A stretch of 64,000 bases of DNA, taken from an uncultured Akkermansia sp. Its GTDB lineage: Bacteria; Verrucomicrobiota; Kiritimatiellia; RFP12; JAAYNR01. Both the position numbers and the translations under genes were made by a program. Of this stretch, positions 15,936 to 51,291 are shown piece after piece. A model generated the notes under the pieces. It was not told the DNA's origin, ran no database searches, and saw nothing but the letters and a program-made list of their open reading frames with translations. The first letter of the stretch is position 1. Every line of letters begins with the position of its first letter. Location: positions 6,034 through 70,033 of the forward strand of contig CAZOJL010000002.1 in the NCBI GenBank assembly GCA_964580075.1, in the 5' to 3' direction.

Positions 15936-15960
15936 CGAAACCCTTGGAAGCGCCGAGAAT

Positions 15961-16070
15961 CGGGGTTCGGGGTTCGGGGTTCGGGGTTCAGGCCGGAAAC
16001 GCCTCCTGAACCCCGAACCCTGAACCCTCTCCGCTTGCACAAACCGGAGGTTTTGCAAGCGCCTCATGCG
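15961..16070. repeat. G-rich palindromic element. It has (GGGGTTC)x4 followed by an imperfect complementary C-rich arm, then a 'cttgcacaaaccggaggttttgcaagcgcctca' module. Possible terminator or REP/MITE-like element.
   Basis: Seen directly. Four G4 tracts with 3-nt loops at 15962-15989. The right arm cctgaaccccgaaccctgaaccct is its near-complement. The adjacent module is an inverted copy of 5526-5575. Confidence 0.65.
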
Positions 16071-39272: not shown

Positions 39273-39457
39273 TGCATAAAGAAACCCCGTCAGAACAACT
39301 CGCCGCCAAGATCGCCGACCGCCTAGTCAAAGAAGGTCTCTTGCCCCCGGATGCCGCCACCAGACTCAAACCCAAACTGGCCCAAGGAACCGTTACCCAA
39401 GATGACTGGAGACTTCCAATAGAACTGGGAGACAAGAAGAAGGAGGCTGCAAAATGA
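39272..39457 (+). CDS. Small hypothetical protein (~61 aa), translationally coupled between the SNF2 helicase and the ATPase
   Basis: TAATG overlap with the SNF2 stop and ATGA overlap with the ATPase start. Lys/Glu-rich, no recognisable domain. Confidence 0.35.
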   Translation: MHKETPSEQLAAKIADRLVKEGLLPPDAATRLKPKLAQGTVTQDDWRLPIELGDKKKEAAK

Positions 39458-41784
39458 GCATTCCAAGTCTAGTGAGCAATCCAGGTCTTCGGCAACTCAC
39501 CGTCGAGAACCTCCGCGGAGCTGTGGTCCCGTTCACGCTCCCTTTTGAGAAGAACAAGAAACTCACAATCGTCTACGGAGAGAATGCCACAGGCAAGTCA
39601 ACCATTTGCGATGCATTCGACTTTCTCGGGAAAGGAAATGTCGGCTCATTGGAAAACCGCGGACTGGGCCGCTCCGAAAGATACTGGCCGTCTATTGGAA
39701 AACCCGCCGGCGCTGTTTCGGTGACACTCGAAACCACCGACCTCGCCAAGTGCTGCGCAAAGATCGGAACAGGAGGTGTCACAGTCACGCCCCCGATCCC
39801 ACGTCCACGGGTCGAAGTGTTGCGCCGCAAACAAATACTCAAACTGATTGAGGCAACCGAGAGCGAACGCTACACGGAAATCCGCCGCTTCATTGACGTG
39901 TCGGCCGTGGAAACATCGGAAGGCACCCTTAACCAGTTGATCAAAGACCTGAACGCCAACCGCAACATTGCCGCAGCACGGTTAACAGAGAACCTAGACG
40001 CACTGACCAACTACTGGAACGCGGCCAGTCAACCAGGAAGCAATGCCCTGACATGGGCAACCACAGAAGCAAAACGAAACCAAACCACTTTAGACAAGGA
40101 GGCGGCCGCCCTGGCTTCACTTCAAGCCGCCTATGCCAGACTCACAGACTACCCGGCGCAACTCACGGCAACCACCCACACCCAGAATGCTGCAAAGGAG
40201 GCGGATGATGCCGCACAGGTCGCCGCAAAACAGTGCGCCCAAACGATTGCTGCAGACGCTGATGAGGTAATCGGCGTACTCCAAGCTGCCCAGACGTACC
40301 TGCACATACACCCGACACCCAAGGTCTGCCCTCTCTGCGAGAGCGCCGAAAAGACGGCAGGTCTGAACCAACGTATTTCACAACGCCTTGGTGCATTCGC
40401 GGCCCTCCAATCGGCACAGGGTCAAGTGAAGACTACCGCCACCGCCGTCCAACGCGCGGAGGCCCAACTCGAAGTCCTGAAGGCCGACGCAAAACGTAAC
40501 GCCGAAACATTTGAGAAAGCACGCACCGACTTTGCCTGGCCCGCGGACATACCACTACCAACATCACCCGCCCCCACGGACATCACCGCACTTGCGACAT
40601 GGCTTGCCGATACCGGTCCCCTGCCTGCCCAATGGAAACAAGCCGAAACCACCCGCCTGGACAAAAAACAGTTCATTGCCTCATTAAATGGGGCACTGAA
40701 AACATACAACGAGAATGTCAATACACAGAAGGAACTGGACGTTCTCCTGCCGAAACTCGATCACGCCTTGAAGATCGTCATTGAGGAACGCCGTGACTTC
40801 ACAGGAAAGATACTGGCGAACATCGCCACAGAAGTCGGCCGCATGTACGAACTCGTTCACCCAGGCGAAGGCCTGAGCAAGATCAGCTTGCAACTCGATC
40901 CCAAGAAACGTGCCTCTTTAGGAATTGGAGCCCCATTCGGCACCATGAAGGAGACCCCGCCGCAAGCCTACTTCAGCGACTCGCACCTCGACACACTAGG
41001 CTTGTGCATTTACTTGGCACTCACCGGACGAGATGAACCGGAGAAGATCATTCTCATAATTGACGACGTACTTGCGAGCGTTGACGAACCCCACGTTCAA
41101 CGACTCATCGAGATGTTGTACGACGAGACGGCAAAGTTCCGGCATTGTCTGATCACCACCCATTACCGCCCATGGAAAGAAAAGTTCCGATGGGGTTGGC
41201 TCAAGAATGCGCAATGCCAGTTTATCGAGTTGAAGGACTGGACGACAACCGAAGGCATCACACATGCCAACAGCGTGCCGGATATTGACCGCCTAAAGTC
41301 ACTTATAGCAGAGAAATCACCTGATTCCCAACTCGTATGCTCCAAAGCCGGCGTGATGTTGGAAGCGGCACTCGAGTTCCTGACCTTACTGTACCAATGC
41401 CGAGTTCCCCGAAAACCCGGCGATACATACACAGTCGGCGACCTCCTACCGGCGATTGACGACAAACTGCGCAAGTCCCTGCAAGTAGAGTGCGCCGTGA
41501 CAGACAAAGCCGGGACAGTCACATACCAAACGAAACAACTCGGCCCAATATTCGATGAACTGGACCGAATCTTCCAACTCCGGAATGTCTTCGGCTGCCA
41601 CTTCAACGAGATATCCTTCACCCTTCTGAACTCGGATGCCCTGACGTTTGGCAAGAAGGTGCTGGAGTTGATCGAAACCCTCGCCGATCCCGATGCCGGA
41701 TGGCCCCGCAGCGACAAGTCCGGCAACTACTGGGCGACCGCCAAGGAAACACGCCGGTTGCACCCCTTAAAGAAACCCAAGTGA
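39454..41784 (+). CDS. ABC/SMC-like (AAA_15/AAA_23-type) ATPase with a long coiled-coil insert and a C-terminal domain of unknown function
   Basis: N-terminal Walker A (GENATGKST) and a ~350-aa Ala/Gln-rich coiled coil. ABC-signature-like FSDSHLDTLGL, Walker B/D-loop IILIIDDVLASVDEPH, and H-loop ITTH. Confidence 0.75.
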   Translation: MSIPSLVSNPGLRQLTVENLRGAVVPFTLPFEKNKKLTIVYGENATGKSTICDAFDFLGKGNVGSLENRGLGRSERYWPSIGKPAGAVSVTLETTDLAKCCAKIGTGGVTVTPPIPRPRVEVLRRKQILKLIEATESERYTEIRRFIDVSAVETSEGTLNQLIKDLNANRNIAAARLTENLDALTNYWNAASQPGSNALTWATTEAKRNQTTLDKEAAALASLQAAYARLTDYPAQLTATTHTQNAAKEADDAAQVAAKQCAQTIAADADEVIGVLQAAQTYLHIHPTPKVCPLCESAEKTAGLNQRISQRLGAFAALQSAQGQVKTTATAVQRAEAQLEVLKADAKRNAETFEKARTDFAWPADIPLPTSPAPTDITALATWLADTGPLPAQWKQAETTRLDKKQFIASLNGALKTYNENVNTQKELDVLLPKLDHALKIVIEERRDFTGKILANIATEVGRMYELVHPGEGLSKISLQLDPKKRASLGIGAPFGTMKETPPQAYFSDSHLDTLGLCIYLALTGRDEPEKIILIIDDVLASVDEPHVQRLIEMLYDETAKFRHCLITTHYRPWKEKFRWGWLKNAQCQFIELKDWTTTEGITHANSVPDIDRLKSLIAEKSPDSQLVCSKAGVMLEAALEFLTLLYQCRVPRKPGDTYTVGDLLPAIDDKLRKSLQVECAVTDKAGTVTYQTKQLGPIFDELDRIFQLRNVFGCHFNEISFTLLNSDALTFGKKVLELIETLADPDAGWPRSDKSGNYWATAKETRRLHPLKKPK

Positions 41785-41843: not shown

Positions 41844-43646
41844 ATGAGCCCCTTAACTCCGGCATACCTGGCCATACTTAAGAAACATCTCGCTGACAGG
41901 TACGTTGTTCACCTGCCACCACTCGCAAAGAACAGCAAAAACTCCGATGAAGTGGAGAAGAAAAACCTTTCGCGGGCTTTCAGCGCCTTCACATTGCATC
42001 ACCTTACTGGCGTTTCTGAAAAAGAAGCCGCAGAGTCAGTTGTGGACGATTTTGAAGACGTTGGTTTGGACGCCGTGTATTACTTCGCACCAACAGAGAC
42101 ACTTTTCCTGGTACAGTCCAAACTGAAAGCATCGGAAGAATTCAGCCAAGACGAAGCACTGGCGTTTTGTCAAGGCATACGCAAACTGATCAAAGAGGAC
42201 TTCAACGGGTTCAATGAACACGTGACACGACGCCAGACGGAAATCGAAGGCGCATTGGAACTATGCCGTGAGATCCAACTTGTTGTCGCACACACCGGTT
42301 CCGGCATCAGCAAACATGCTCGAACCGCTTTAGACGAACTCCGCCAGGATGAGACCCACGACGAACTACGGTTCACCCCCCCAATCCTGGATTTTGATGC
42401 AAACAAAGTAGTAAACGGCCTGCAAGGAAGTCATGCCTACAAACGCGTCGACACGAAACTTGTTGTCAGGAACTGCAAACACATTGCCGAACCAAGATCG
42501 ACATACTTCGGTCTAGCCAATATCATAGACTTGGTCGCACTGCACAAGACACATGACAAGGCACTCTACGACAAGAACATCCGGACATTTCTCGGTCACG
42601 AGACAGACGTGAATAAGGCTATCCAGAAGACATTAGCCGAGAAACCTGACCACTTTATCTACCTGAATAACGGCGTCACAGTGCTCTGCCAACAGATCGA
42701 CCCGAAGGACACTAACAAGAAGGAAGGCAGGCGCTTGGTAATCAAGGGGTTTTCCGTGGTGAACGGCGCCCAGACGATTGCGTCGTCCGCAAAGTATGTG
42801 GCCGATAACCCGGGTGCAAATATAGATTTTGCCCGCGTTTTGATCACACTGATTGAAGCTGCCGCTGACGGCGACTTTGGGAAGTCCGTCACCAGAGCCC
42901 GTAATCATCAGAATGAAGTCAAACAGTCCAACTTCGCTGCCCTTGACGACGGTCAGGAGAGACTTCGCAGGGATTTGGCGCAACTTGATATTCAGTACGC
43001 ATACAAGGCAGGAAGAACCGAAGGACCAGATGATCCCAACCGAATTCAGATTGAGGAAGCAGTTCAGGCATTGGCGCTACTTCAGGGCGACCCGCGATAC
43101 GCCGTCCGGTTGAAGAAGCAACCCGCTGACCTATTGAACACGGAGTCCGACCAGTACAAGGAACTTTTCGGTTCATCGCTCACTGCTTTCCAACTACTCA
43201 ATGCGGTTCTTGTAAATCGTTACGTCCAACGCCGGATTGGAGAAGAAGTCGGGAGAACGGGCGGCCAGGAAAGACTCGTTTACAAGCACGGGAACCACGT
43301 GATCGCATGGATACTCGCCAAGTGTGTAATGAAGGCCATTAACGAACCGGCACGCATAGACAACGCTAAACTCAACACTTTACTTAGCGTGCCGTTCGAT
43401 GAAATCAGACAAAAGCAATGGGACAAGGCCCAACCAGCCCTTGCGCAACGCGGACCGTTGTCTTTGTTCCGCAACCAAACCCATACCATCCCATTGATGC
43501 AACACCTCATGATCGACTTCTACGGTCTGACAAACGATCCAGTCATAGGACACAAACTCGCACAACAGCAACCTGGCGACCTCTATCCAACGCACCTCTT
43601 CGCGTACCTGATTCAACGGGCGCCCCAGATCGGGGGACTCTCATGA
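41844..43646 (+). CDS. AIPR-family (abortive infection phage resistance) protein
   Basis: N-terminal AIPR signature (SRAFSAFTLHHL..VDDFEDVGLDAVYYF..LFLVQSKL) and the central motif FIYLNNGVTVLC..GFSVVNGAQT characteristic of PF10592-type proteins. GGAAGG Shine-Dalgarno before the ATG at 41844; ATGA overlap with the downstream mod. Confidence 0.7.
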   Translation: MSPLTPAYLAILKKHLADRYVVHLPPLAKNSKNSDEVEKKNLSRAFSAFTLHHLTGVSEKEAAESVVDDFEDVGLDAVYYFAPTETLFLVQSKLKASEEFSQDEALAFCQGIRKLIKEDFNGFNEHVTRRQTEIEGALELCREIQLVVAHTGSGISKHARTALDELRQDETHDELRFTPPILDFDANKVVNGLQGSHAYKRVDTKLVVRNCKHIAEPRSTYFGLANIIDLVALHKTHDKALYDKNIRTFLGHETDVNKAIQKTLAEKPDHFIYLNNGVTVLCQQIDPKDTNKKEGRRLVIKGFSVVNGAQTIASSAKYVADNPGANIDFARVLITLIEAAADGDFGKSVTRARNHQNEVKQSNFAALDDGQERLRRDLAQLDIQYAYKAGRTEGPDDPNRIQIEEAVQALALLQGDPRYAVRLKKQPADLLNTESDQYKELFGSSLTAFQLLNAVLVNRYVQRRIGEEVGRTGGQERLVYKHGNHVIAWILAKCVMKAINEPARIDNAKLNTLLSVPFDEIRQKQWDKAQPALAQRGPLSLFRNQTHTIPLMQHLMIDFYGLTNDPVIGHKLAQQQPGDLYPTHLFAYLIQRAPQIGGLS

Positions 43647-45397
43647 CCAGACACCTCAAACTCGAACTCACCTGGATCGGCAAGGAGAACCGGCCCCGCC
43701 TGGAGCCGCGCATCCTCCTCGAAGATCCGGAGAAGTCGTATCACGCCGCACATCGGGTGAAGGAATGGCCGCAAGAGAACGCAAAAAACACAAAAGGCTC
43801 AGACTCTTTGCGCTCTCTGTGTTCTTTCGCGGCTAAGAATCCCTCCGATGTCGGCGATCTCTTCGACAACCGCCTCATCTTCGGCGACAACCTCCTCGCC
43901 CTCAAGGCACTTGAGCAAGAGTTCACCGGGAAAATTAGGTGCGTATTCATTGACCCACCCTACAACACGGGTAGCGCATTTACACACTACGACGATGGAG
44001 TTGAGCACTCTCTTTGGCTTTCTCTCATCAGAGATCGACTGGAGATGTTACGTCAACTCCTTGCCGATGACGGTTCTCTTTGGATCACTATTGACGACAA
44101 TGAATCTCATTATCTTAAGGTTTTGTGCGACGAAGTGTTTGGAAGGCAGAACTTCGTTGCCAATGTGGTCTGGCAAAAAAAATCGTCACCGCAACCAAAC
44201 GCGGTTTGGCTTTCCGACAGTCACGACCACATCCTTGTTTACGCGAAAAATAAATCTATATGGCGTCCAAATATGTTGGAGCGCAGTGTTGAAGCGAATT
44301 CGCGTTACAAGAATCCAGACAACGATCCCCGTGGTATGTGGACGTCTGGTGACTGCACAATCAGCTTGACCGGCGGGCAACGCGGAGCGCAGTTCGCTAG
44401 GACCGGTGTTTCGGAGAACATCTATGAAATTCAAACGCCGTCTGGGCGCAAGGTGTCTCCTCCACCTGGAACATGCTGGCGTTTTAGTAAGAAGCGATAT
44501 GAAGAACTGGTAAAAGAATACCGGATTTATTTTGGTGACACCGGCAATAACGTTCCAAGATACAAGAGATTCCTTTCAGAAGTTCAGGAAGGTATTGTCT
44601 GCATGACAGTGTGGCTTCGAACAGAAGTGAGCGATAATCAGGACGCGAAGCGAGAAGTAATGGTATTCAATTCCGAGCAGGTGTTTTCTACACCGAAACC
44701 CGAAAGGCTTTTACAACGCATCGTTGAGTTAGCGTCGAATCCCGGTGACTGGGTGCTCGACTCCTTCGCCGGTTCCGGCACTACGGGTGCGGTCGCTCAC
44801 AAGATGGGCCGGCGCTGGATCATGGTGGAACTGGGCGAGCATTGCCACACACACATCATTCCCCGACTCAAAAAAGTTATTGACGGTGAAGATTCTGGCG
44901 GCATCACGAAGTCCGTGGATTGGAAAGGCGGCGGTGGGTTCCGCTACTACCGGCTCGCGCCGTCGCTGCTGGAAAAGGACAAGTGGGGGCAGTGGGTCAT
45001 CAGCAAGGAGTTTAATGCCGCCATGTTGGCCGAGGCGGCCTGTAAACTGGAAGGGTTCACCTACGCCCCGAGCGACTCTGTCTATTGGCAACACGGGCAC
45101 TCCACCGAACGTGATTTCATCTATGTGACCACCCAGAATCTGAACGCCGCCCAACTTGCGCAGTTGAGCGATGAAGTCGGCCCGGATCGCACCTTGCTCG
45201 TGCTTTGCGCCGCCTTTCGCGCACCACGTGGCGACGCCGCCGAACGCTACCCGAACCTCACGGTGAAGAAGATTCCCAAACAGGTGCTTTCCCGTTGCGA
45301 ATGGGGGCATGATGATTACAGTCTAAACGTGGAGAACTTGCCCAAGGCACCGCCGAAGTTGGGGCAACAGGATCTGTTTGCGGAGGTTGGCAAATGA
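43643..45397 (+). CDS. Type III restriction-modification DNA methyltransferase (Mod subunit, N6-adenine/N4-cytosine class)
   Basis: LKLELTWIGKENRP N-terminus typical of Type III Mod, catalytic DPPYN motif, and a SAM-binding LDSFAGSGTTGAVA motif separated by a large target-recognition region. Confidence 0.85.
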   Translation: MTRHLKLELTWIGKENRPRLEPRILLEDPEKSYHAAHRVKEWPQENAKNTKGSDSLRSLCSFAAKNPSDVGDLFDNRLIFGDNLLALKALEQEFTGKIRCVFIDPPYNTGSAFTHYDDGVEHSLWLSLIRDRLEMLRQLLADDGSLWITIDDNESHYLKVLCDEVFGRQNFVANVVWQKKSSPQPNAVWLSDSHDHILVYAKNKSIWRPNMLERSVEANSRYKNPDNDPRGMWTSGDCTISLTGGQRGAQFARTGVSENIYEIQTPSGRKVSPPPGTCWRFSKKRYEELVKEYRIYFGDTGNNVPRYKRFLSEVQEGIVCMTVWLRTEVSDNQDAKREVMVFNSEQVFSTPKPERLLQRIVELASNPGDWVLDSFAGSGTTGAVAHKMGRRWIMVELGEHCHTHIIPRLKKVIDGEDSGGITKSVDWKGGGGFRYYRLAPSLLEKDKWGQWVISKEFNAAMLAEAACKLEGFTYAPSDSVYWQHGHSTERDFIYVTTQNLNAAQLAQLSDEVGPDRTLLVLCAAFRAPRGDAAERYPNLTVKKIPKQVLSRCEWGHDDYSLNVENLPKAPPKLGQQDLFAEVGK

Positions 45398-46617
45398 AGA
45401 AGAACCCCGCGCTTTATGAACGTGTCCGGCAGATTCTAGAATCTGCCCGGTCAACCGTGGCCCGGTCGGTGAACACGACCCAGGTGGTAGCGAATTGGCT
45501 GATCGGCCAGGAGATTGTGGAGGAAGAGCAAAAGGGAAAGCGCCGGGCTGACTACGGGAACGAGTTGATCATCGACCTGGCAAAACGATTGACGGCGGAT
45601 TTTGGAAACGGGTACTCCAAGGACAATCTCTTCTGGTTCCGCCGATTGTATCAAGGTTATCCGGAACTGCTGGCCCGGCAGAAATTTGACGCACTGCGTC
45701 AAATTTCCGACGCAGTGCCTCGGAAATCTACAGGCACAGGGACTTTTGCAGCATTTCCGTCAAAAACGCGCACCGTGCATAGTTGTTCTGTTGCGGAGAT
45801 TGGCTACGCAGTGCGTAGCCAATCCTGGAAACCCGGCCAACTCCATCCAACCCTCTCCTGGACCCACTACCGGACACTACTGCGCGTGGATAAACCCGAG
45901 ACCCGCGCCTTTTATGAAATCGAGGCAATCAAGAACAATTGGGGGGCGCGGGAACTGGAGCGGCAAATTTGCAGCCTGTTCTATGAACGACTGGCGTTGA
46001 GTCGGGACAAAAAGGGATTGATGCGTCTGGCGACAAAAGGGCAGGTTGTTCAGAAGCCAACGGATGTGTTCAAGGACCCAGTGGTCATGGAATTTCTGGG
46101 GCTTCCGGAATCGCCGAGACTGACCGAAACCGATCTGGAGACCGCCTTGATCAACAATCTCCAGTCATTTCTGCTGGAACTGGGCAAGGGGTTCGCCTTT
46201 GTGGCGCGACAGGGCCGACTGACACTGGACGGCGATCATTTTTACGTGGATCTTGTTTTCTATCATACGATCCTGAAGTGCTACGTGATCATTGATCTCA
46301 AGACCGGCAAACTCACACATCAGGACCTTGGGCAACTTCAACTGTACGTCAACTACTACGACCGGGAGAAACGCGCCACGGGCGATAATCCAACATTGGG
46401 GCTGATTCTCTGCGCCGAGAAGAACGACACCGTGGTGCGGTACACCTTGGGCAAAGACCAGAAAAAGCAGATATTCGCCAGCCGTTATCAGATGTACCTG
46501 CCGACCGAGGCCCAACTGCGGGCCGAGATACGCCGGGAAGTCCGATTGTTGCAAGCGCCAGAGATTGCAACGAAAAAACGCATGGAGCGTAAAGGACGAA
46601 TTGCTGCCCTAAGTTGA
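45394..46617 (+). CDS. DUF1016/YhcG-family protein with a C-terminal PD-(D/E)XK nuclease fold
   Basis: YhcG N-domain (LSWTHYRTLL..RAFYEIEAIKNNWGARELERQI) and C-terminal PD-(D/E)XK signature (DGDHFYVDLVFYH..YVIIDLKTGK). ATGA overlap with the mod stop. Confidence 0.7.
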   Translation: MKKNPALYERVRQILESARSTVARSVNTTQVVANWLIGQEIVEEEQKGKRRADYGNELIIDLAKRLTADFGNGYSKDNLFWFRRLYQGYPELLARQKFDALRQISDAVPRKSTGTGTFAAFPSKTRTVHSCSVAEIGYAVRSQSWKPGQLHPTLSWTHYRTLLRVDKPETRAFYEIEAIKNNWGARELERQICSLFYERLALSRDKKGLMRLATKGQVVQKPTDVFKDPVVMEFLGLPESPRLTETDLETALINNLQSFLLELGKGFAFVARQGRLTLDGDHFYVDLVFYHTILKCYVIIDLKTGKLTHQDLGQLQLYVNYYDREKRATGDNPTLGLILCAEKNDTVVRYTLGKDQKKQIFASRYQMYLPTEAQLRAEIRREVRLLQAPEIATKKRMERKGRIAALS

Positions 46618-46710
46618 ATACAGTTCATCTGGACAATTTACCATGTCCACGTCAAAACCGGAGCAGATCGAATGGCTATGAATGACATAACCGCACCCGA
46701 AGACCAACAA

Positions 46711-46787
46711 CCACTTCGCGCCTTCGCGTCTTCGCGTGAAATCCCAACGCAGACAGTCTCACGCGAAGGCGCGAAGGCGCGAAGTGG
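46711..46787. repeat. 29-bp near-perfect inverted repeat (CCACTTCGCGCCTTCGCGTCTTCGCGTGA / TCACGCGAAGGCGCGAAGGCGCGAAGTGG) with a 19-nt loop, immediately 5' of the GxxExxY start. A direct copy of the left arm lies 3' of the gene at 47172-47196.
   Basis: Seen directly; the arms are reverse complements with 1-2 mismatches. Confidence 0.7.
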
Positions 46788-46791
46788 GGAG

Positions 46792-47223
46792 ATGAACATC
46801 GAAGAGGTTTCGGCGATCATCGTGGATTGTGGTTACAAATTGCATGTTGAGGTAGGACCTGGCCTTTTGGAAAGCGTGTATGAAGTGGTCCTGGCCAAGA
46901 TGCTGGAACAACGCGGTTTGCGCGTGCGACGACAGGTTCCCGTGCCGATTGAATTAATGGGGTTGACGTTTGACGAAGGGTTTCGCGCGGATTTGATTGT
47001 CCATGATCGGGTGCTGGTGGAGTTGAAGTCGGTAGAAAACCTGGCCCCTGTTCACGGCAAGCAAGTCCTCACTTATCTCCGCCTTTTAAAGATGCCGCTA
47101 GGCTTGTTGATTAATTTTAGCGCCGCAACCTTCAAGGATGGCGTAAAGCGCATCGTCAACCAACATCATGATTTCGCGTCTTCGCGTCTTCGCGTGAACC
47201 AAGCCCTTTCGGAGAATCCATGA
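46792..47223 (+). CDS. GxxExxY-family protein (small PD-(D/E)XK-like nuclease-fold protein)
   Basis: GPGLLESVYE motif, plus DLIVHDRVLVELKSV and LLINF motifs that match the GxxExxY family consensus. GGGGAG Shine-Dalgarno upstream. The ORF continues past the family core to an ATGA overlap with res; the upstream ORF portion (46672-) is the translated hairpin. Confidence 0.65.
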   Translation: MNIEEVSAIIVDCGYKLHVEVGPGLLESVYEVVLAKMLEQRGLRVRRQVPVPIELMGLTFDEGFRADLIVHDRVLVELKSVENLAPVHGKQVLTYLRLLKMPLGLLINFSAATFKDGVKRIVNQHHDFASSRLRVNQALSENP

Positions 47224-49916
47224 AGCCCCAAGTCAACGCCATTGCCGGACGACTGAGTCTGCGCCAGCCCCAACGCCGCGCGTTGGAAATCCTCGACCGC
47301 GTTACGGAGATCGTCCCGCCCAAGAAGGGCGCTGACATCGCAGCCGCCTTGGCGGTCATCCGGTCCGAGTTTCCAACCGTCACCGATTTTGAGCGCGACT
47401 TTCCCTCCCTCTGTTTTGCCCTTGCCACTGGCGTTGGCAAGACGCGCCTCATGGGCGCTTTCATCACCTATCTCTATCAGGCATACGGCATCAACAACTT
47501 TTTCGTCATGGCTCCGAATCTGACGATCTACAACAAGTTGATCACGGACTTCACGCCCAACACCTCCAAGTATGTTTTCAAGGGAATCGCCGAGTTTGCC
47601 ACGGAGCCGCCGGAAATCATCACCGGCGACAACTACGAGGCCAAGGCAGGCACCTTGTTTGACGAGTTGATCCGCTGCCGGGTGAACATCTTCAATATCT
47701 CGAAGATCAACTCCGAAGTCCGAGGCGGCAAGTCGCCGCGCATCAAACGCCTCTCCGAGTACATCGGCGAGAGCTATTTCGAGTACTTGGCCAATCTGCC
47801 CGACCTTGTTCTCGTCATGGATGAATCGCACCGCTACCGGGCCAGCGCGGGCGTGCGGGCAATCAACGAACTCAAGCCCGTCCTGGGGCTGGAACTCACG
47901 GCCACGCCGTTTGTCGAGACCGGGAAGGGGCCTGTAGCGTTCAAGAACGTTATTCAGGATTACCCCCTTGGCAAGGCCATGGCCGATGGCTTTGTAAAGG
48001 AACCGGCCGTTGTCACGCGCAAGAATTTCAACCCGGCCGGCATGACGCCCGAAGCCGTGGAGCGCATGAAACTGGAGGACGGCGTCCGCCTGCACGAGAG
48101 CATCAAGGTGGAACTGGAGACGTACGCGCGCGAAACGGAAAACCGCCTCGTAAAACCGTTTGTCCTGGTCATCGCCCGCGATACCACGCACGCCAAGCAA
48201 CTCGTTGACCTGCTCCAATCCGAAACCTTCTTCGATGGCCGCTACAAGGAGAAGGTCATCCAGGTCGATTCCAGCAAGACCGGCGCCGAAGAAGACGAGA
48301 TGGTTGAGCGCTTGCTCAAGGTCGAGCACACGGACGAACCAACCGAAATTGTGATTCACGTCAACATGCTCAAGGAGGGGTGGGACGTCACCAACCTCTA
48401 CACCATCGTCCCTCTTCGTGCCGCCAATGCCCGCACCCTCATCGAGCAGTCCATCGGCCGCGGCCTGCGCCTGCCATACGGCAAGCGCACAGGCGTCACC
48501 AGCGTGGATCGCCTGAACATCGTAGCCCATGACAAGTTTCAGGAGATCGTGGACGAAGCCAAGAAACCCGGCTCTGCCATCCATCTCCAGCAGGTCATCC
48601 TGGCCGACGACACACTTAGCCAGAAGACCGTCACCATGGTCTCCCAGTCCCAACTCGCCAATCGCCTGGGCCTGACTGTGGATCAACCGACACCCAGCAC
48701 GCTACAACCCGAGGCAGCGGCCAAGCCGATATTTACACAGCCGGAAGAACAGAAGATCGCGCAACTCACCTACGAGGCCATCAAGAGGCTCGAAAGTCAG
48801 CCCACGGCCGTGCCGGGCGTCTCATTCCTGTCGAACCCGGACGTGCAGGCAGCCATTCAAAAGGAAGTGGCAAGCCGGTATCAACCCCCGGTTCAGATGG
48901 AGATGGATGTCGTCACCGCGAAGCCAGACATTGCGGCCATTGTTGCCGCCACGGCAGAACTGGTCATCCAGCAGACTATCGATATTCCCCGAATTCTCGT
49001 GGTGCCCGCCGGCAAGGTCCAATCCGGCTTCAAGCCATTTGTCCTGAAACTGGATACGCTCAATTACCCGCCGGTCTCCGAAGAACTTTGGGCCAAACAC
49101 CTGCGCACCGATCAGGTTGATGTCATCGCCATGGGCAAGGGCGGTACTGAGGAAGAGCGCCTGGAAGACTACGTTGTTTCCGGCTTGGTTGATTTCGACG
49201 ACATCTCATACGACGCGCACGCAGATCTTCTGTACGATCTGGCAGGTCAGGTTGTGCGCCATCTCCGGTCCTACCTCAAGGAAGAAGCGGAGACTCGAAA
49301 GGTTCTCCGGTGTTATCAGCGGGACATCGCCCGGTTTGTCCATGCCCAGATGCAGGAGCACTACTGGGAAGCGGCTACCTCTCTCGACGTGACGATCACC
49401 AAGGGGTTCACCGAACTCAAACGAAGCGCCTACACCACCGATGCCCGAGATCCGGTCAAGGATTATCGGTATTCACTGGCGGACAAGAGCAACATGCCCA
49501 AGCACCTCTTCGGCGGTTTCACAAAATGCCTCTATCCGGTCCAGAAGTTTCAGTCCGACCCGGAGCGCAAGATGGCTGTGATCCTCGAACGCGAATCCGA
49601 CAAATGGTTCCGGCCGGCCAAGGGCCAATTCCAGATCTACTACAAGTCCGGCGCCGAGCAACCCGAATATCAGCCAGACTTCGTGGCCGAGACGGCCGAC
49701 GTCATCTACATGCTCGAACCCAAACGCCGCGACGAGTTGCAGGATGCCGACGTGCAGGCCAAGAAAGCCGTTGCTGAAATCTGGTGCCAGCACGCCACCG
49801 CACACGCCAAGACCTACAACGGCAAGCCCTGGCAATACCTCCTCATCCCCCACGACGCCATCGCCGACAACATGACGCTCGAAGGGCTCGCCGCCCTGTT
49901 CAAGGACAACGAATGA
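47220..49916 (+). CDS. Type III restriction enzyme Res subunit (SF2 helicase-nuclease)
   Basis: Helicase motif I ALATGVGKTR, motif II LVLVMDESHRY, a helicase C region, and a C-terminal endonuclease region. ~900 aa, positioned with mod. Confidence 0.85.
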   Translation: MKPQVNAIAGRLSLRQPQRRALEILDRVTEIVPPKKGADIAAALAVIRSEFPTVTDFERDFPSLCFALATGVGKTRLMGAFITYLYQAYGINNFFVMAPNLTIYNKLITDFTPNTSKYVFKGIAEFATEPPEIITGDNYEAKAGTLFDELIRCRVNIFNISKINSEVRGGKSPRIKRLSEYIGESYFEYLANLPDLVLVMDESHRYRASAGVRAINELKPVLGLELTATPFVETGKGPVAFKNVIQDYPLGKAMADGFVKEPAVVTRKNFNPAGMTPEAVERMKLEDGVRLHESIKVELETYARETENRLVKPFVLVIARDTTHAKQLVDLLQSETFFDGRYKEKVIQVDSSKTGAEEDEMVERLLKVEHTDEPTEIVIHVNMLKEGWDVTNLYTIVPLRAANARTLIEQSIGRGLRLPYGKRTGVTSVDRLNIVAHDKFQEIVDEAKKPGSAIHLQQVILADDTLSQKTVTMVSQSQLANRLGLTVDQPTPSTLQPEAAAKPIFTQPEEQKIAQLTYEAIKRLESQPTAVPGVSFLSNPDVQAAIQKEVASRYQPPVQMEMDVVTAKPDIAAIVAATAELVIQQTIDIPRILVVPAGKVQSGFKPFVLKLDTLNYPPVSEELWAKHLRTDQVDVIAMGKGGTEEERLEDYVVSGLVDFDDISYDAHADLLYDLAGQVVRHLRSYLKEEAETRKVLRCYQRDIARFVHAQMQEHYWEAATSLDVTITKGFTELKRSAYTTDARDPVKDYRYSLADKSNMPKHLFGGFTKCLYPVQKFQSDPERKMAVILERESDKWFRPAKGQFQIYYKSGAEQPEYQPDFVAETADVIYMLEPKRRDELQDADVQAKKAVAEIWCQHATAHAKTYNGKPWQYLLIPHDAIADNMTLEGLAALFKDNE

Positions 49917-49954
49917 GAGCGAGATCTAAAGAATCTCCTTGATGTGGAGCGCAT

Positions 49955-50055
49955 TCTTTTTCGTCGATTTCGGTCCCGATCCCGATCCCGATCCCAATCC
50001 CGATTTGGATCCCGATAGCGGCTGCCAGTGTTAGAATTGCTGGTATGGGCAGTGT
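49955..50055. repeat. Reverse-orientation copy of the intergenic repeat family: (GATCCC)n tandems plus the exact 46-mer at 49997-50042
   Basis: Reverse complement of 49997-50042 equals 5749-5794 at 46 of 46 positions. Confidence 0.75.
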
Positions 50056-50085
50056 GTGGCATTGCCTTCAGTCCGAATCTTCGCT

Positions 50086-51291
50086 ATGATCTCCCGCACA
50101 TACGCCATGGCACGTGATCAAACAAATCAAACGGAGCGGCTCGAGAAGTTTCTCGTCCGCCTGATCCAGCAGCCGGGGGCCGACCAGGGACACACCGGGT
50201 CGATCCGGCTGTTGCTGGCGTTTTTGAAAGGGCTGGCGCATCTTTTCCGCGGCGCGGTGCAGACGCGCCTGTGTTTTTATGAGGCGGGTATCTTGCGCCG
50301 TTATCCCCTGGGGTGCCAGGTGATCAGCGTGGGGAACATCACGGCGGGCGGGACGGGCAAGACCCCGGTGGTGGAGATCTTCGCCCGCGAACTTCATAAG
50401 TCGGGACGGAAAGTCGCCATCCTCAGCCGTGGCTACCGCAAGAAGGAATTGCCGTGGTATCAGCGGGTCTTCAGAGAAACCCTCGAACCGCCGCGGGTCG
50501 TGAGCGACGGTCACCACCTGTTGCTCGACAGTGAGATGGGCGGGGACGAGCCCTACATGCTGGCGTCCAACCTGCCGGGCGTGGTGGTGCTGGTCGACCG
50601 CAACCGCGTCAAGAGCGGGCGTTACGCGATCAAAACGTTCGGGTGTGACACGCTCGTGCTCGACGACGGCTTTCAGTATCAGAAGCTCAAGCACCGGCTC
50701 GAATTGGTGCTGATCGACAAGACCAACCCCTTTGGCAACGGCAATGTTCTGCCGCGCGGTGTATTGCGCGAACCGGTGCGCAACCTGAATCGGGCGGACT
50801 TTATCTTCATCACCAAGTCTGACGGGAAGTCGGATGCGCTGCGCGCCCGGATCCGCGAGTTGAACGACCACGCCGAAATCATCGAATGCTGTCATCGGCC
50901 CCAATACCTGCGCAACGCTTACAGCCAGGAGACGTTGCCCCTTTCGTGGTTGGACGGCAAGAAGGCCGCCGCCCTCTCCGGGATTGCGGTGCCGCAAAGT
51001 TTCGAAGGTTTTCTGCGCGGCATGGGGGCGCGATTGGTGGCGTGCGACCGCTTTGCCGACCATCACCGGTACGAGGCGCAAGAGATCATTGACGCCGTGA
51101 ACCGGGCGGATGAACTGGGGGCCTGCGCGTTGATCACGACCGAGAAGGACGCCGTACGGCTGCCGCGGCTGGCGAGTTCGGCCGTGCCGGTCTACTACTT
51201 GCGGGTGGAGATCGAGATCCTCTCCGGGGCCGAGAATTTCCACGAAGCGGTCCGGCATATCTGCACGCACGGGGCGCGGAAAGGGGCGTAG
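50086..51291 (+). CDS. lpxK: Tetraacyldisaccharide 4'-kinase
   Basis: [16 protein letters not shown]-loop and SRGYRKK motifs. Start ambiguous (50056, 50086 or 50107). Confidence 0.75.

Follow-up and report, generated by a model that had tools for sequence, protein, structure and literature searches.

Two nuclease-type genes between mod and res of a Type III restriction-modification operon: a palindrome-bearing DUF1016/YhcG gene and a repeat-bounded GxxExxY gene

A Type III restriction-modification (R-M) operon with two further genes between mod and res was analysed in a stretch of 64,000 nucleotides (the window) of contig CAZOJL010000002.1, from an uncultured Akkermansia sp. Four co-directional genes lie on the + strand at positions 43643-49916, in the order mod, DUF1016/YhcG, GxxExxY and res. 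With a probability of about 0.6, they are read here as an apparently working Type III R-M operon within a defence island, in which the mod|res junction would be a cargo slot for the DUF1016 gene and for a GxxExxY cassette, and in which the palindromes found within the DUF1016 gene would be an element at the level of the DNA. The palindromes are presented first, after the gene content.

Gene content and junctions of the operon

A Type III mod and res pair with two PD-(D/E)XK-type genes between its members had been proposed in the initial annotation, and this was borne out by matches to Pfam, TIGR and PADLOC models. The mod gene (43643-45397, + strand) encodes a DNA methyltransferase of 584 aa (PF01555, 8e-48; PADLOC MTase_III, 731 bits), in which DPPY (aa 104) is N-terminal to FAGSG (aa 375), the order of a Type III Mod. 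The res gene (47220-49916, + strand) encodes a restriction subunit of 898 aa (PF04851, 9e-21; PADLOC REase_III, 689 bits, full length) with the motifs GVGKT (aa 71), DESH (aa 201), TATP (aa 227) and PD...EPK (aa 819-835, PD at aa 819 and EPK at aa 833). Mod has the motif order and Res the superfamily 2 (SF2) helicase and PD-(D/E)XK features of Type III subunits; mod is not immediately followed by res, as 1822 nt with two genes separate them, the order and strand of the pair being retained. Judged by these motifs, Mod and Res probably form a Type III enzyme.

The first of the two inserted genes (45394-46617, + strand) encodes a DUF1016/YhcG PD-(D/E)XK nuclease of 407 aa, matched by PF17761 (120.9 bits) and PF06250 (196.9 bits), both above the Pfam cut-offs, and by the PADLOC candidate PDC-S02 (467 bits). 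Its predicted catalytic residues E262, D286 and D301-x-K303 are invariant in the alignment of 19 close homologues (69-81% identity over the alignment). The second (46678-47223, + strand) encodes a GxxExxY protein of 181 aa (PF13366, 3e-36; TIGR04256, 127.2 bits with a cut-off of 35) with GLLESVY at aa 62, ADL at aa 104 and ELK at aa 115; the family is defined by a domain of about 117 aa with the GxxExxY motif and a D...ExK core.

ATGA overlaps were found at three junctions, between the upstream AIPR gene and mod, between mod and DUF1016, and between GxxExxY and res. The claim that res is coupled by overlap to the gene preceding it is therefore upheld, but not the claim that all junctions are of the ATGA type, because DUF1016 and GxxExxY are separated by a gap of 54-60 nt (stop at 46617; GxxExxY ATG at 46672 or 46678).

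Palindromes within the DUF1016 gene

The 136 positions of the Pfam DUF1016_N profile span 189 residues in the window protein, leaving about 53 residues in excess of the profile. An insertion of about 50 aa had been noted at this place, and the excess is real; it is not private to this protein, however, since all 19 aligned homologues have a segment of variable length there, with repeats of the form x-[D/Y/H]-A-x-R-x-x-S, and the protein aligns with its subfamily throughout. On this alignment, the 50-aa insertion is the variable linker of the family, here made of three in-frame palindromes of 25 nt. P1, AAATTTGACGCA C TGCGTCAAATTT (45682-45706), is perfect, extends to 27 nt with the flanking bases and encodes KFDALRQI. 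P2, ATTTCCGACGCA G TGCcTCGGAAAT (45703-45727), has one mismatch and encodes ISDAVPRK. P3, ATTGGCTACGCA G TGCGTAGCCAAT (45799-45823), is again perfect and encodes IGYAVRSQ. The single palindrome reported initially, a 19-mer at 45802-45820, does exist, but it is part of a perfect palindrome of 25-27 nt (45798-45824) comprising P3, and it is only one of three frame-locked units of a kind found throughout the family.

A further perfect palindrome of 20 nt, GGCAGATTCTAGAATCTGCC, is located near the 5' end of the gene at 45428-45447 (codons 12-18, RQILESA). It was not seen as a palindrome in the other 78 DUF1016 genes compared, only in this lineage. With a stem of at least 10 and a loop of at most 5, the 64-kb window contains only three perfect palindromes, P1, P3 and that at 45428-45447, all within DUF1016, against 0-1 in shuffles. 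The folds of the DUF1016 palindromes as DNA are significant (z -4.4 and -4.7), and the only three occurrences of the skeleton A..CA.TG..T in the window are all within the DUF1016 linker. Nothing in Rfam 15 matched positions 43000-50200 at E values up to 1.

Comparison with the nearest relative, locus L007 from Kiritimatiellia (L numbers denote fetched loci), revealed two divergent patches in an operon that is otherwise 90-100% identical: the target-recognition region of Mod (44380-44740) and positions 45520-45820 of DUF1016, in the middle of the N-terminal domain. DNA identity is about 97% in the 3' half of DUF1016 and 93-98% along res. The DUF1016 patch ends at about 45820, adjoining P3, in this one comparison (n = 1). 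Either the two patches swap jointly, or the palindrome marks a recombination breakpoint.

Two interpretations of the stems were considered and set aside. That they carry the recognition site of Mod, Type III enzymes needing inverted sites, is unsupported, as L007 has a different Mod target recognition domain yet shares the GGCTACGCAGTGCGTAGCC unit, and as orphan yhcG genes keep palindromes too. A sequence-specific dimeric operator is weakened by the differences in stem sequence among the units of one gene.

Conservation of the palindromes across the DUF1016 family

A set of 79 DUF1016 genes was compared with shuffles that preserve the protein and the codon usage. The longest perfect stem was at least 8 in 76% of the genes against 8% of the shuffles, and at least 12 in 46% of the genes against none of 1580 shuffles. 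In 58 of 60 cases the palindrome is centred on codon position 1. The units are found upstream of the conserved motif SW(S/T)H, by a few to about 60 codons (one at 93), and follow the consensus A(T/A)(T/A)-N4-A-NN-CA-S-TG-NN-T-N4-AAT.

For the covariation analysis, units were anchored on the six skeleton bases only. A total of 61 genes yielded 86 units, of which 82 share one phase. At the free positions, 83-88% were Watson-Crick paired, with three or four pair types each. Over the 84 distinct units, 85.3% of cells pair compared with 62.9% after shuffling, and the covariation score was 0.518, compared with 0.145 for shuffled and 0.06-0.12 for slid units. The cells that do not pair are mostly not G:U.

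The encoded peptide is not conserved and takes forms such as DALR, YAVR, QTLS, HTVC, QSVI, YPPG, FPVG and EQPV. The bases at third codon positions are those that allow pairing, and among close homologues a synonymous change on one arm (CTC/CTT/CTA) is answered by an amino-acid replacement (R/Q/L) on the other, so that pairing overrides the protein sequence. Units within one gene differ in stem sequence, each being self-complementary. As far as can be judged from these alignments, it is self-complementarity, and not the peptide, that the family preserves. Perfect palindromes at a single place in the gene were retained in every branch of this large family that was looked at.

In about 1.2 Mb of fetched loci, the full pattern was present in DUF1016 genes only, save one match 140 nt downstream of the gene in L082. 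The orphan yhcG gene of E. coli K-12 (L087, NC_000913.3, 5828-6955) has three in-frame units, including a perfect palindrome of 33 nt, AAAGATTTGGCAGACGCTGTCTGCCAAATCTTT, at gene nt 378-410. No report of palindromes in DUF1016/YhcG was found in a literature search.

The GxxExxY cassette

The longest GxxExxY open reading frame (ORF) begins at ATG 46672, and homology with sister copies, which begin MND or MNG, places the start at 46678. A start at ATG 46792 was excluded, CTG being present there in the sister strain L088. The ORF thus runs through a hairpin at 46711-46787, with arms of 29 nt (97% complementary) and a loop of 19 nt (-39.9 kcal/mol as DNA, z -10). Each arm consists of about three tandem octamers (TTCGCGYC) followed by TGAA. 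A third copy of the arm, TTCGCGTCTTCGCGTCTTCGCGTGAA, is located in the 3' end of the gene (47173-47198), inverted relative to 46759-46787, and encodes the conserved tail FASSRLRVN; the terminal inverted repeats, 46759-46783 and 47173-47197, match over 25 nt at 92%. Every close homologue (65-95% identity over the alignment) terminates in ...FASSRLRVN, the translated repeat, and many have an N-terminal read-through of the hairpin, SREDAKAR...LRxFAPSRE.

Such repeats are usual for the family. The 200 nt upstream of the gene were compared with its 3' end in a sample of 80 metagenomic loci; an inverted match of at least 12 nt was found in 75% of 71 GxxExxY loci against 5% of controls, and one of at least 16 nt in 54% against 0.4%. 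The octamer varies by locus (CTTCGCG, CTCCGCG, CTTTGCG, CTTCGTG, CTCTGCG and others) and the partner arm covaries with it. The minimum free energy of whole windows around GxxExxY was uninformative, since GC-rich coding DNA of the controls folds equally well, and was replaced by these stem and inverted-match counts. Within the cassette no recognised transposase was found, PF13366 being the only match and PADLOC giving no hit; a PDB sequence search with GxxExxY gave no significant match (best 2ixs, E 0.39).

GxxExxY is absent from L007, which has 45 nt in place of positions 46562-47219 of the window (658 nt) between flanks that are about 97% identical. In L090, a copy with 85% identity lies between the genes for a PP2C-type response regulator and an anti-sigma kinase/STAS protein, with an ATGA overlap on each side, which is either a 4-bp duplication or merely two gene overlaps. 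The gene is mostly co-directional within operons: of 70 loci, 36 have an ORF beginning no more than 30 nt downstream (12 with an overlap of exactly 4 nt), and of 69 loci, 58 have an ORF ending no more than 300 nt upstream. The initial annotation had left open whether the extra genes are accessory effectors, addiction modules or hitchhiking selfish genes; for GxxExxY the last of these suits the absence from L007, the operon of L090, which is not an R-M operon, and the inverted repeats. From its sequence and distribution, GxxExxY is read as a selfish mobile or recombining cassette.

The start of the cassette in the window is fused to a fossil of the 3' end of a mod gene (46655-46686, + strand), with 34 of 37 nt identical to the junction between mod end and GxxExxY start of L171. 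This argues that the window GxxExxY derives, through recombination, from a junction of mod with GxxExxY and still carries a remnant of the mod concerned.

An in-frame hairpin insertion of 87 nt (29 aa, peptide ENAKNTKGSDSLRSLCSFAAKN) was found within the window mod itself at 43766-43852 (+ strand), missing from nine homologous Mods. It was called from the protein alignment and not from folding; folded as RNA, the + strand gives z -3.0 and the - strand z -3.5, and the DNA fold is not significant. The peptide resembles the read-through of GxxExxY-type hairpins (compare the N-terminus of P0210), and the insertion may be a solo copy of the GxxExxY-flanking repeat inside a coding sequence.

Two further observations concern GxxExxY elsewhere. 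At L073 (7690-8370), in the genome of L007, a more distant copy is situated upstream of a second methylase-DUF1016 pair; its hairpins have the same build with a different sequence, made of CGGAGGCA-type octamers, and the last 30 nt or so of the gene are tandemly duplicated together with the hairpin. In L106, L112, L117, L130, L148 and L160 the GxxExxY stop is followed at once by a gene beginning MFDLTG... (a FabG-like short-chain reductase by its first codons only), which suggests that the cassette either entered a conserved operon long ago or prefers this site.

The mod|res junction in related operons

The contexts of Res proteins 78-89% identical to the window Res were collected. Five of these relatives are an unbiased sample; in four of them (L175, L176, L177 and L178) mod and res overlap directly by 4 nt, and in the fifth (L179) an ORF of 198 aa precedes res. 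Two others, L171 and L173, were picked through a match to GxxExxY hits and are not unbiased; their orders are mod-GxxExxY-degraded DUF1016-res and mod-GxxExxY-RhuM-res, respectively. From these seven contexts, the mod|res junction of the clade is a slot, usually empty and sometimes occupied by DUF1016, RhuM and/or GxxExxY.

The RhuM gene in the slot of L173 contains a palindrome as well, AACTTGTAAGGAATACTTACAAGTT, with a stem of 10 bp and a loop of 5 nt (L173 6176-6200, gene nt 207-231).

DUF1016 genes in restriction operons

Relatives of the window DUF1016 were collected from 80 genomic loci, which were searched with the window proteins. The order mod-DUF1016-res without GxxExxY was present in 11 of them, from many phyla: L007 (Kiritimatiellia), L008 (PVC group), L014 (Phycisphaerales), L015 (Nitrospirales), L016 (Polaromonas), L019 and L046 (Planctomycetota), L020 (Desulfobacteraceae), L038 (Ignavibacteriales), L050 (Bacteroidetes) and L083 (Methanoregula). 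A Pfam scan of same-strand neighbours in the 80 loci gave 10 N6_Mtase, 9 N6_N4_Mtase and 5 Eco57I matches upstream of DUF1016, and 11 ResIII, 5 HsdS, 4 Eco57I and 3 MmeI downstream. DUF1016 is thus habitually found inside Type I, IIG and III operons, typically right after the methylase gene.

The locus had been presented as an oddity, unless homologous loci were to contain the same two genes. It is not one as regards DUF1016: mod-DUF1016-res recurs in at least 11 lineages, and the association of DUF1016 with R-M methylases, ResIII and HsdS has been described before (PMC3424549, PMC9881135). L171 and L173 also have GxxExxY between mod and res.

A literature search found no functional study of GxxExxY, DUF1016, YhcG or PDC-S02, and a PDB sequence search with the DUF1016 protein gave no match.

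Genomic surroundings

Directly upstream of the operon are genes for an SMC/LmuB-like AAA ATPase (39454-41784, + strand) and an AIPR/AbiU-like protein (about 41844-43646, + strand), the latter adjoining mod; a SNF2 helicase gene lies further upstream in the source contigs. The same contig was present in many lake metagenomes, with the order SpoU | SNF2 helicase - 61 aa - AAA ATPase - AIPR - mod - DUF1016 - GxxExxY - res | LpxK MurJ MurG LepA. The G+C content is 0.48-0.60 in the island, compared with 0.60-0.73 in the flanking lpxK-murG genes. The number of hits in promoter and terminator scans did not exceed that in shuffles.

A SNF2 helicase together with AIPR and/or an SMC-like AAA ATPase repeatedly precedes the mod-res pair of this clade (window, L173, L175, L178 and L179), and the genes between them and mod-res vary (Abi_2, radical SAM, small ORFs). 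The upstream genes and the Type III pair may together make up one bigger, composite defence unit. A run of CGATCC-like hexamer repeats (49965-50012) was observed at the right border of the low-GC island, between res and lpxK; its fold is not significant (z +0.7). Elsewhere in the window, at 15960-16027, a hairpin is positioned just past the stop of the 14496-15935 gene. Its arms, (GGGGTTC)x3-4 against CCTGAACCCCGAACCCTGAACCC, are made of tandem repeats as in the GxxExxY hairpin, but there is no GxxExxY gene nearby.

Discussion

In the explanation proposed here, the mod|res slot would hold two kinds of cargo. The first would be the YhcG/DUF1016 gene, coupled to mod by overlap and presumably co-translated after Mod; by analogy with other toxins embedded in R-M operons, DUF1016 is most likely a co-expressed second nuclease, serving as a backup or complementary effector. 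The second would be GxxExxY, a small PD-(D/E)XK gene between inverted repeats built from octamers, which would settle co-directionally inside operons as a selfish element and probably came to this site with about 35 nt of the 3' end of another mod. Its ORF appears to reach the start of the next gene, the stop overlapping the ATG of res, and the sequence ahead of that ATG differs from that of L007 and contains GGAG; expression of res would therefore stay intact. The palindromes would be a DNA element of the hairpin or cruciform type, intrinsic to yhcG-like genes, with a cis-regulatory site or a structured ligand of the nuclease itself as candidate roles.

A broader statement is given an even chance. 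According to it, the yhcG family bears an ancient element made of one or more perfect, frame-locked palindromes of 25-33 nt (three in the window and in E. coli yhcG), whose skeleton is conserved and whose stems covary freely, a functional DNA hairpin or cruciform or an RNA hairpin, with the peptide as its passenger, and GxxExxY would represent a new class of hairpin-bounded cassettes at operon junctions, keeping downstream translation coupled. The element could act as the protein's own ligand, as an autoregulatory site or as a recombination hotspot by which N-terminal modules are swapped.

Several points weigh against the cargo-slot explanation. Restriction activity, the nuclease activity of DUF1016 and its coupling to R-M are predicted from sequence. 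DUF1016 has also been found on conjugative elements (PMC4316617). It occurs as an orphan in E. coli (yhcG), so the family has no strict need of an R-M partner. Degraded copies are present inside Type III operons, in L171 (6231-7004), where the nuclease core is internally deleted, and in L014 and L019, where the ORF is split; DUF1016 is thus not invariably maintained and may also be a hitchhiker. An AlphaFold2 model on a 20-sequence alignment of close homologues only had a pLDDT of 41, too poor to show where the linker sits in the structure. The cassette lacks a clear-cut left boundary, as the empty site of L007 also differs in 45 nt of the DUF1016 tail. Since L171 and L173, two other related loci, also have GxxExxY between mod and res, a specific affinity of GxxExxY for R-M operons, or a function in them, is conceivable.

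Finally, template-switch mutation alone could keep the palindromes perfect without any function. Correction of quasi-palindromes by template switching is a known mutational process, and the alternative built on it is that an ancestral quasi-palindrome has been kept perfect by intramolecular switching in a tolerant, disordered linker. It would account for a peptide that is hypervariable in length and sequence, for a copy number of 1 to 3 in the unit scan (up to about 6 motif repeats are suggested by the protein alignment), and for unpaired cells that are mostly not G:U, a pattern like that of DNA rather than RNA. Against it stand the constancy of location, codon phase and skeleton between Bacteria and Archaea, at a protein identity of about 45%, and in E. 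coli; the near-absence of similar palindromes elsewhere in the window and the loci; and the paired changes in which a synonymous substitution in one arm goes with a replaced amino acid in the opposite arm. Functionless palindromes are considered unlikely on these grounds.

Somewhat less probable is a four-component system, the reading preferred in the initial annotation, in which DUF1016 and GxxExxY would both be functional accessory effectors selected together with mod and res. The co-direction of all four genes with three overlapping junctions, the nuclease-type motifs retained in both extra proteins and the presence of GxxExxY in the mod-res interval at three different positions (window, L171 and L173) agree with it. 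These three placements vary in order and partner, however, which resembles repeated insertion rather than a fixed architecture. GxxExxY is missing from the nearest relative, L007, and from the 11 mod-DUF1016-res loci, neither gene is present in four of the five unbiased Res relatives, and near-identical GxxExxY copies are found in unrelated operons.

Equally improbable is that DUF1016 acts as a controller, binding the palindromes of its own gene and holding back transcription or translation into res as long as the host DNA is unmethylated. The conserved skeleton (A..CA.TG..T, with ATT/AAT) could be read by a protein, the palindromes are confined to the DUF1016 gene itself, and DUF1016 strongly prefers the place directly 3' of methylase genes and 5' of R/S genes; yet orphan yhcG genes retain palindromes without an R-M neighbour, the stem sequences differ among the units of one gene, and the invariant catalytic E-D-ExK would be needless for a pure regulator. 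The least probable alternative is that of RNA hairpins in the mRNA, which might, for example, direct processing, make ribosomes pause or act in cis as an antitoxin to the nuclease: the units invariably occupy the coding strand and keep to one frame, fold significantly (the z of -4.4 and -4.7 being for DNA) and lie in a polycistronic R-M transcript where differential expression would be of use, but G:U pairs are rare relative to other mismatches, the 1-nt loops and C:G-closed triloops appear more DNA-like, and no Rfam family was matched.

If the broader statement on the yhcG family is true, a structured element embedded in coding sequence is common to Bacteria and Archaea and present in E. coli K-12. 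The palindromes in the K-12 yhcG gene make the question directly testable in a standard model organism, and they may provide a first handle on what YhcG/DUF1016, a common nuclease of defence islands, recognises. GxxExxY is among the most abundant small 'hypothetical' families of environmental bacteria and sits inside operons without breaking them, behaviour that is relevant to operon evolution. Read-through of its repeats inflates ORFs and inserts peptides into host genes such as the window mod, which matters for annotation.

Comparison with known systems

Canonical Type III systems of the EcoP1I/EcoP15I type share with the window a beta-class Mod with DPPY before FxGxG, a Res with SF2 motifs and a C-terminal PD...ExK, and a mod located 5' of res in one operon. 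The window differs from them in the two additional genes (1.8 kb) between mod and res and in the in-frame hairpin insertion of 87 nt in mod.

Rickettsia palindromic elements (RPE) are short palindromic DNA sequences translated in-frame within proteins, where the peptide is tolerated rather than conserved. The DUF1016 units are alike in being translated palindromes with a tolerated peptide. RPE and repetitive extragenic palindromic (REP) sequences are, however, dispersed over many genes and intergenic sites of one genome, whereas the DUF1016 units belong to one gene family, at one homologous position and in one codon phase, across many phyla; in the 64-kb window and the roughly 1.2 Mb of loci they did not behave as a dispersed repeat. 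GxxExxY resembles miniature inverted-repeat transposable elements and insertion sequences with terminal inverted repeats, and REP sequences with their REP-associated tyrosine transposases (REP-RAYT), in its flanking inverted repeats, presence/absence polymorphism, many contexts and very large families of near-identical copies. Unlike these, it has no recognised transposase fold (DDE, HUH, serine or tyrosine recombinase), its repeats are tandem octamers that are copy-specific and covarying, with the 3' repeat belonging to the ORF, and its copies are co-directional inside operons, often with start/stop overlaps. Both this cassette architecture and the family-wide DUF1016 palindromes seem to be undescribed in the searchable literature.

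R-M operons are hosts to toxins such as PrrC, RhuM and Doc, which have been interpreted as layered defence (PMC3710099). As in the nested toxins PrrC (in EcoprrI), RloC, RhuM, Fic/Doc and ApeA (PMC3710099), the window DUF1016 is an accessory gene between methylase and restriction or specificity genes. An activation mechanism is known for PrrC/Stp and none for DUF1016. DUF1016 or RhuM has been found between Type I core genes (PMC9881135; PMC3424549), and the sister operons described here hold DUF1016 and RhuM in the identical slot. The published DUF1016 cases are mostly Type I or IIG; the Type III order mod-DUF1016-res, here across 11 lineages, is apparently undescribed in the searchable literature as far as could be found. 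DUF1016 lies where a PrrC-type embedded toxin would, between mod and res in the window and in 11 other loci and beside Type I and IIG genes elsewhere, and by position it fits the class of layered-defence toxins. The locus is a variant of a known theme, that of accessory nucleases nested in restriction operons.

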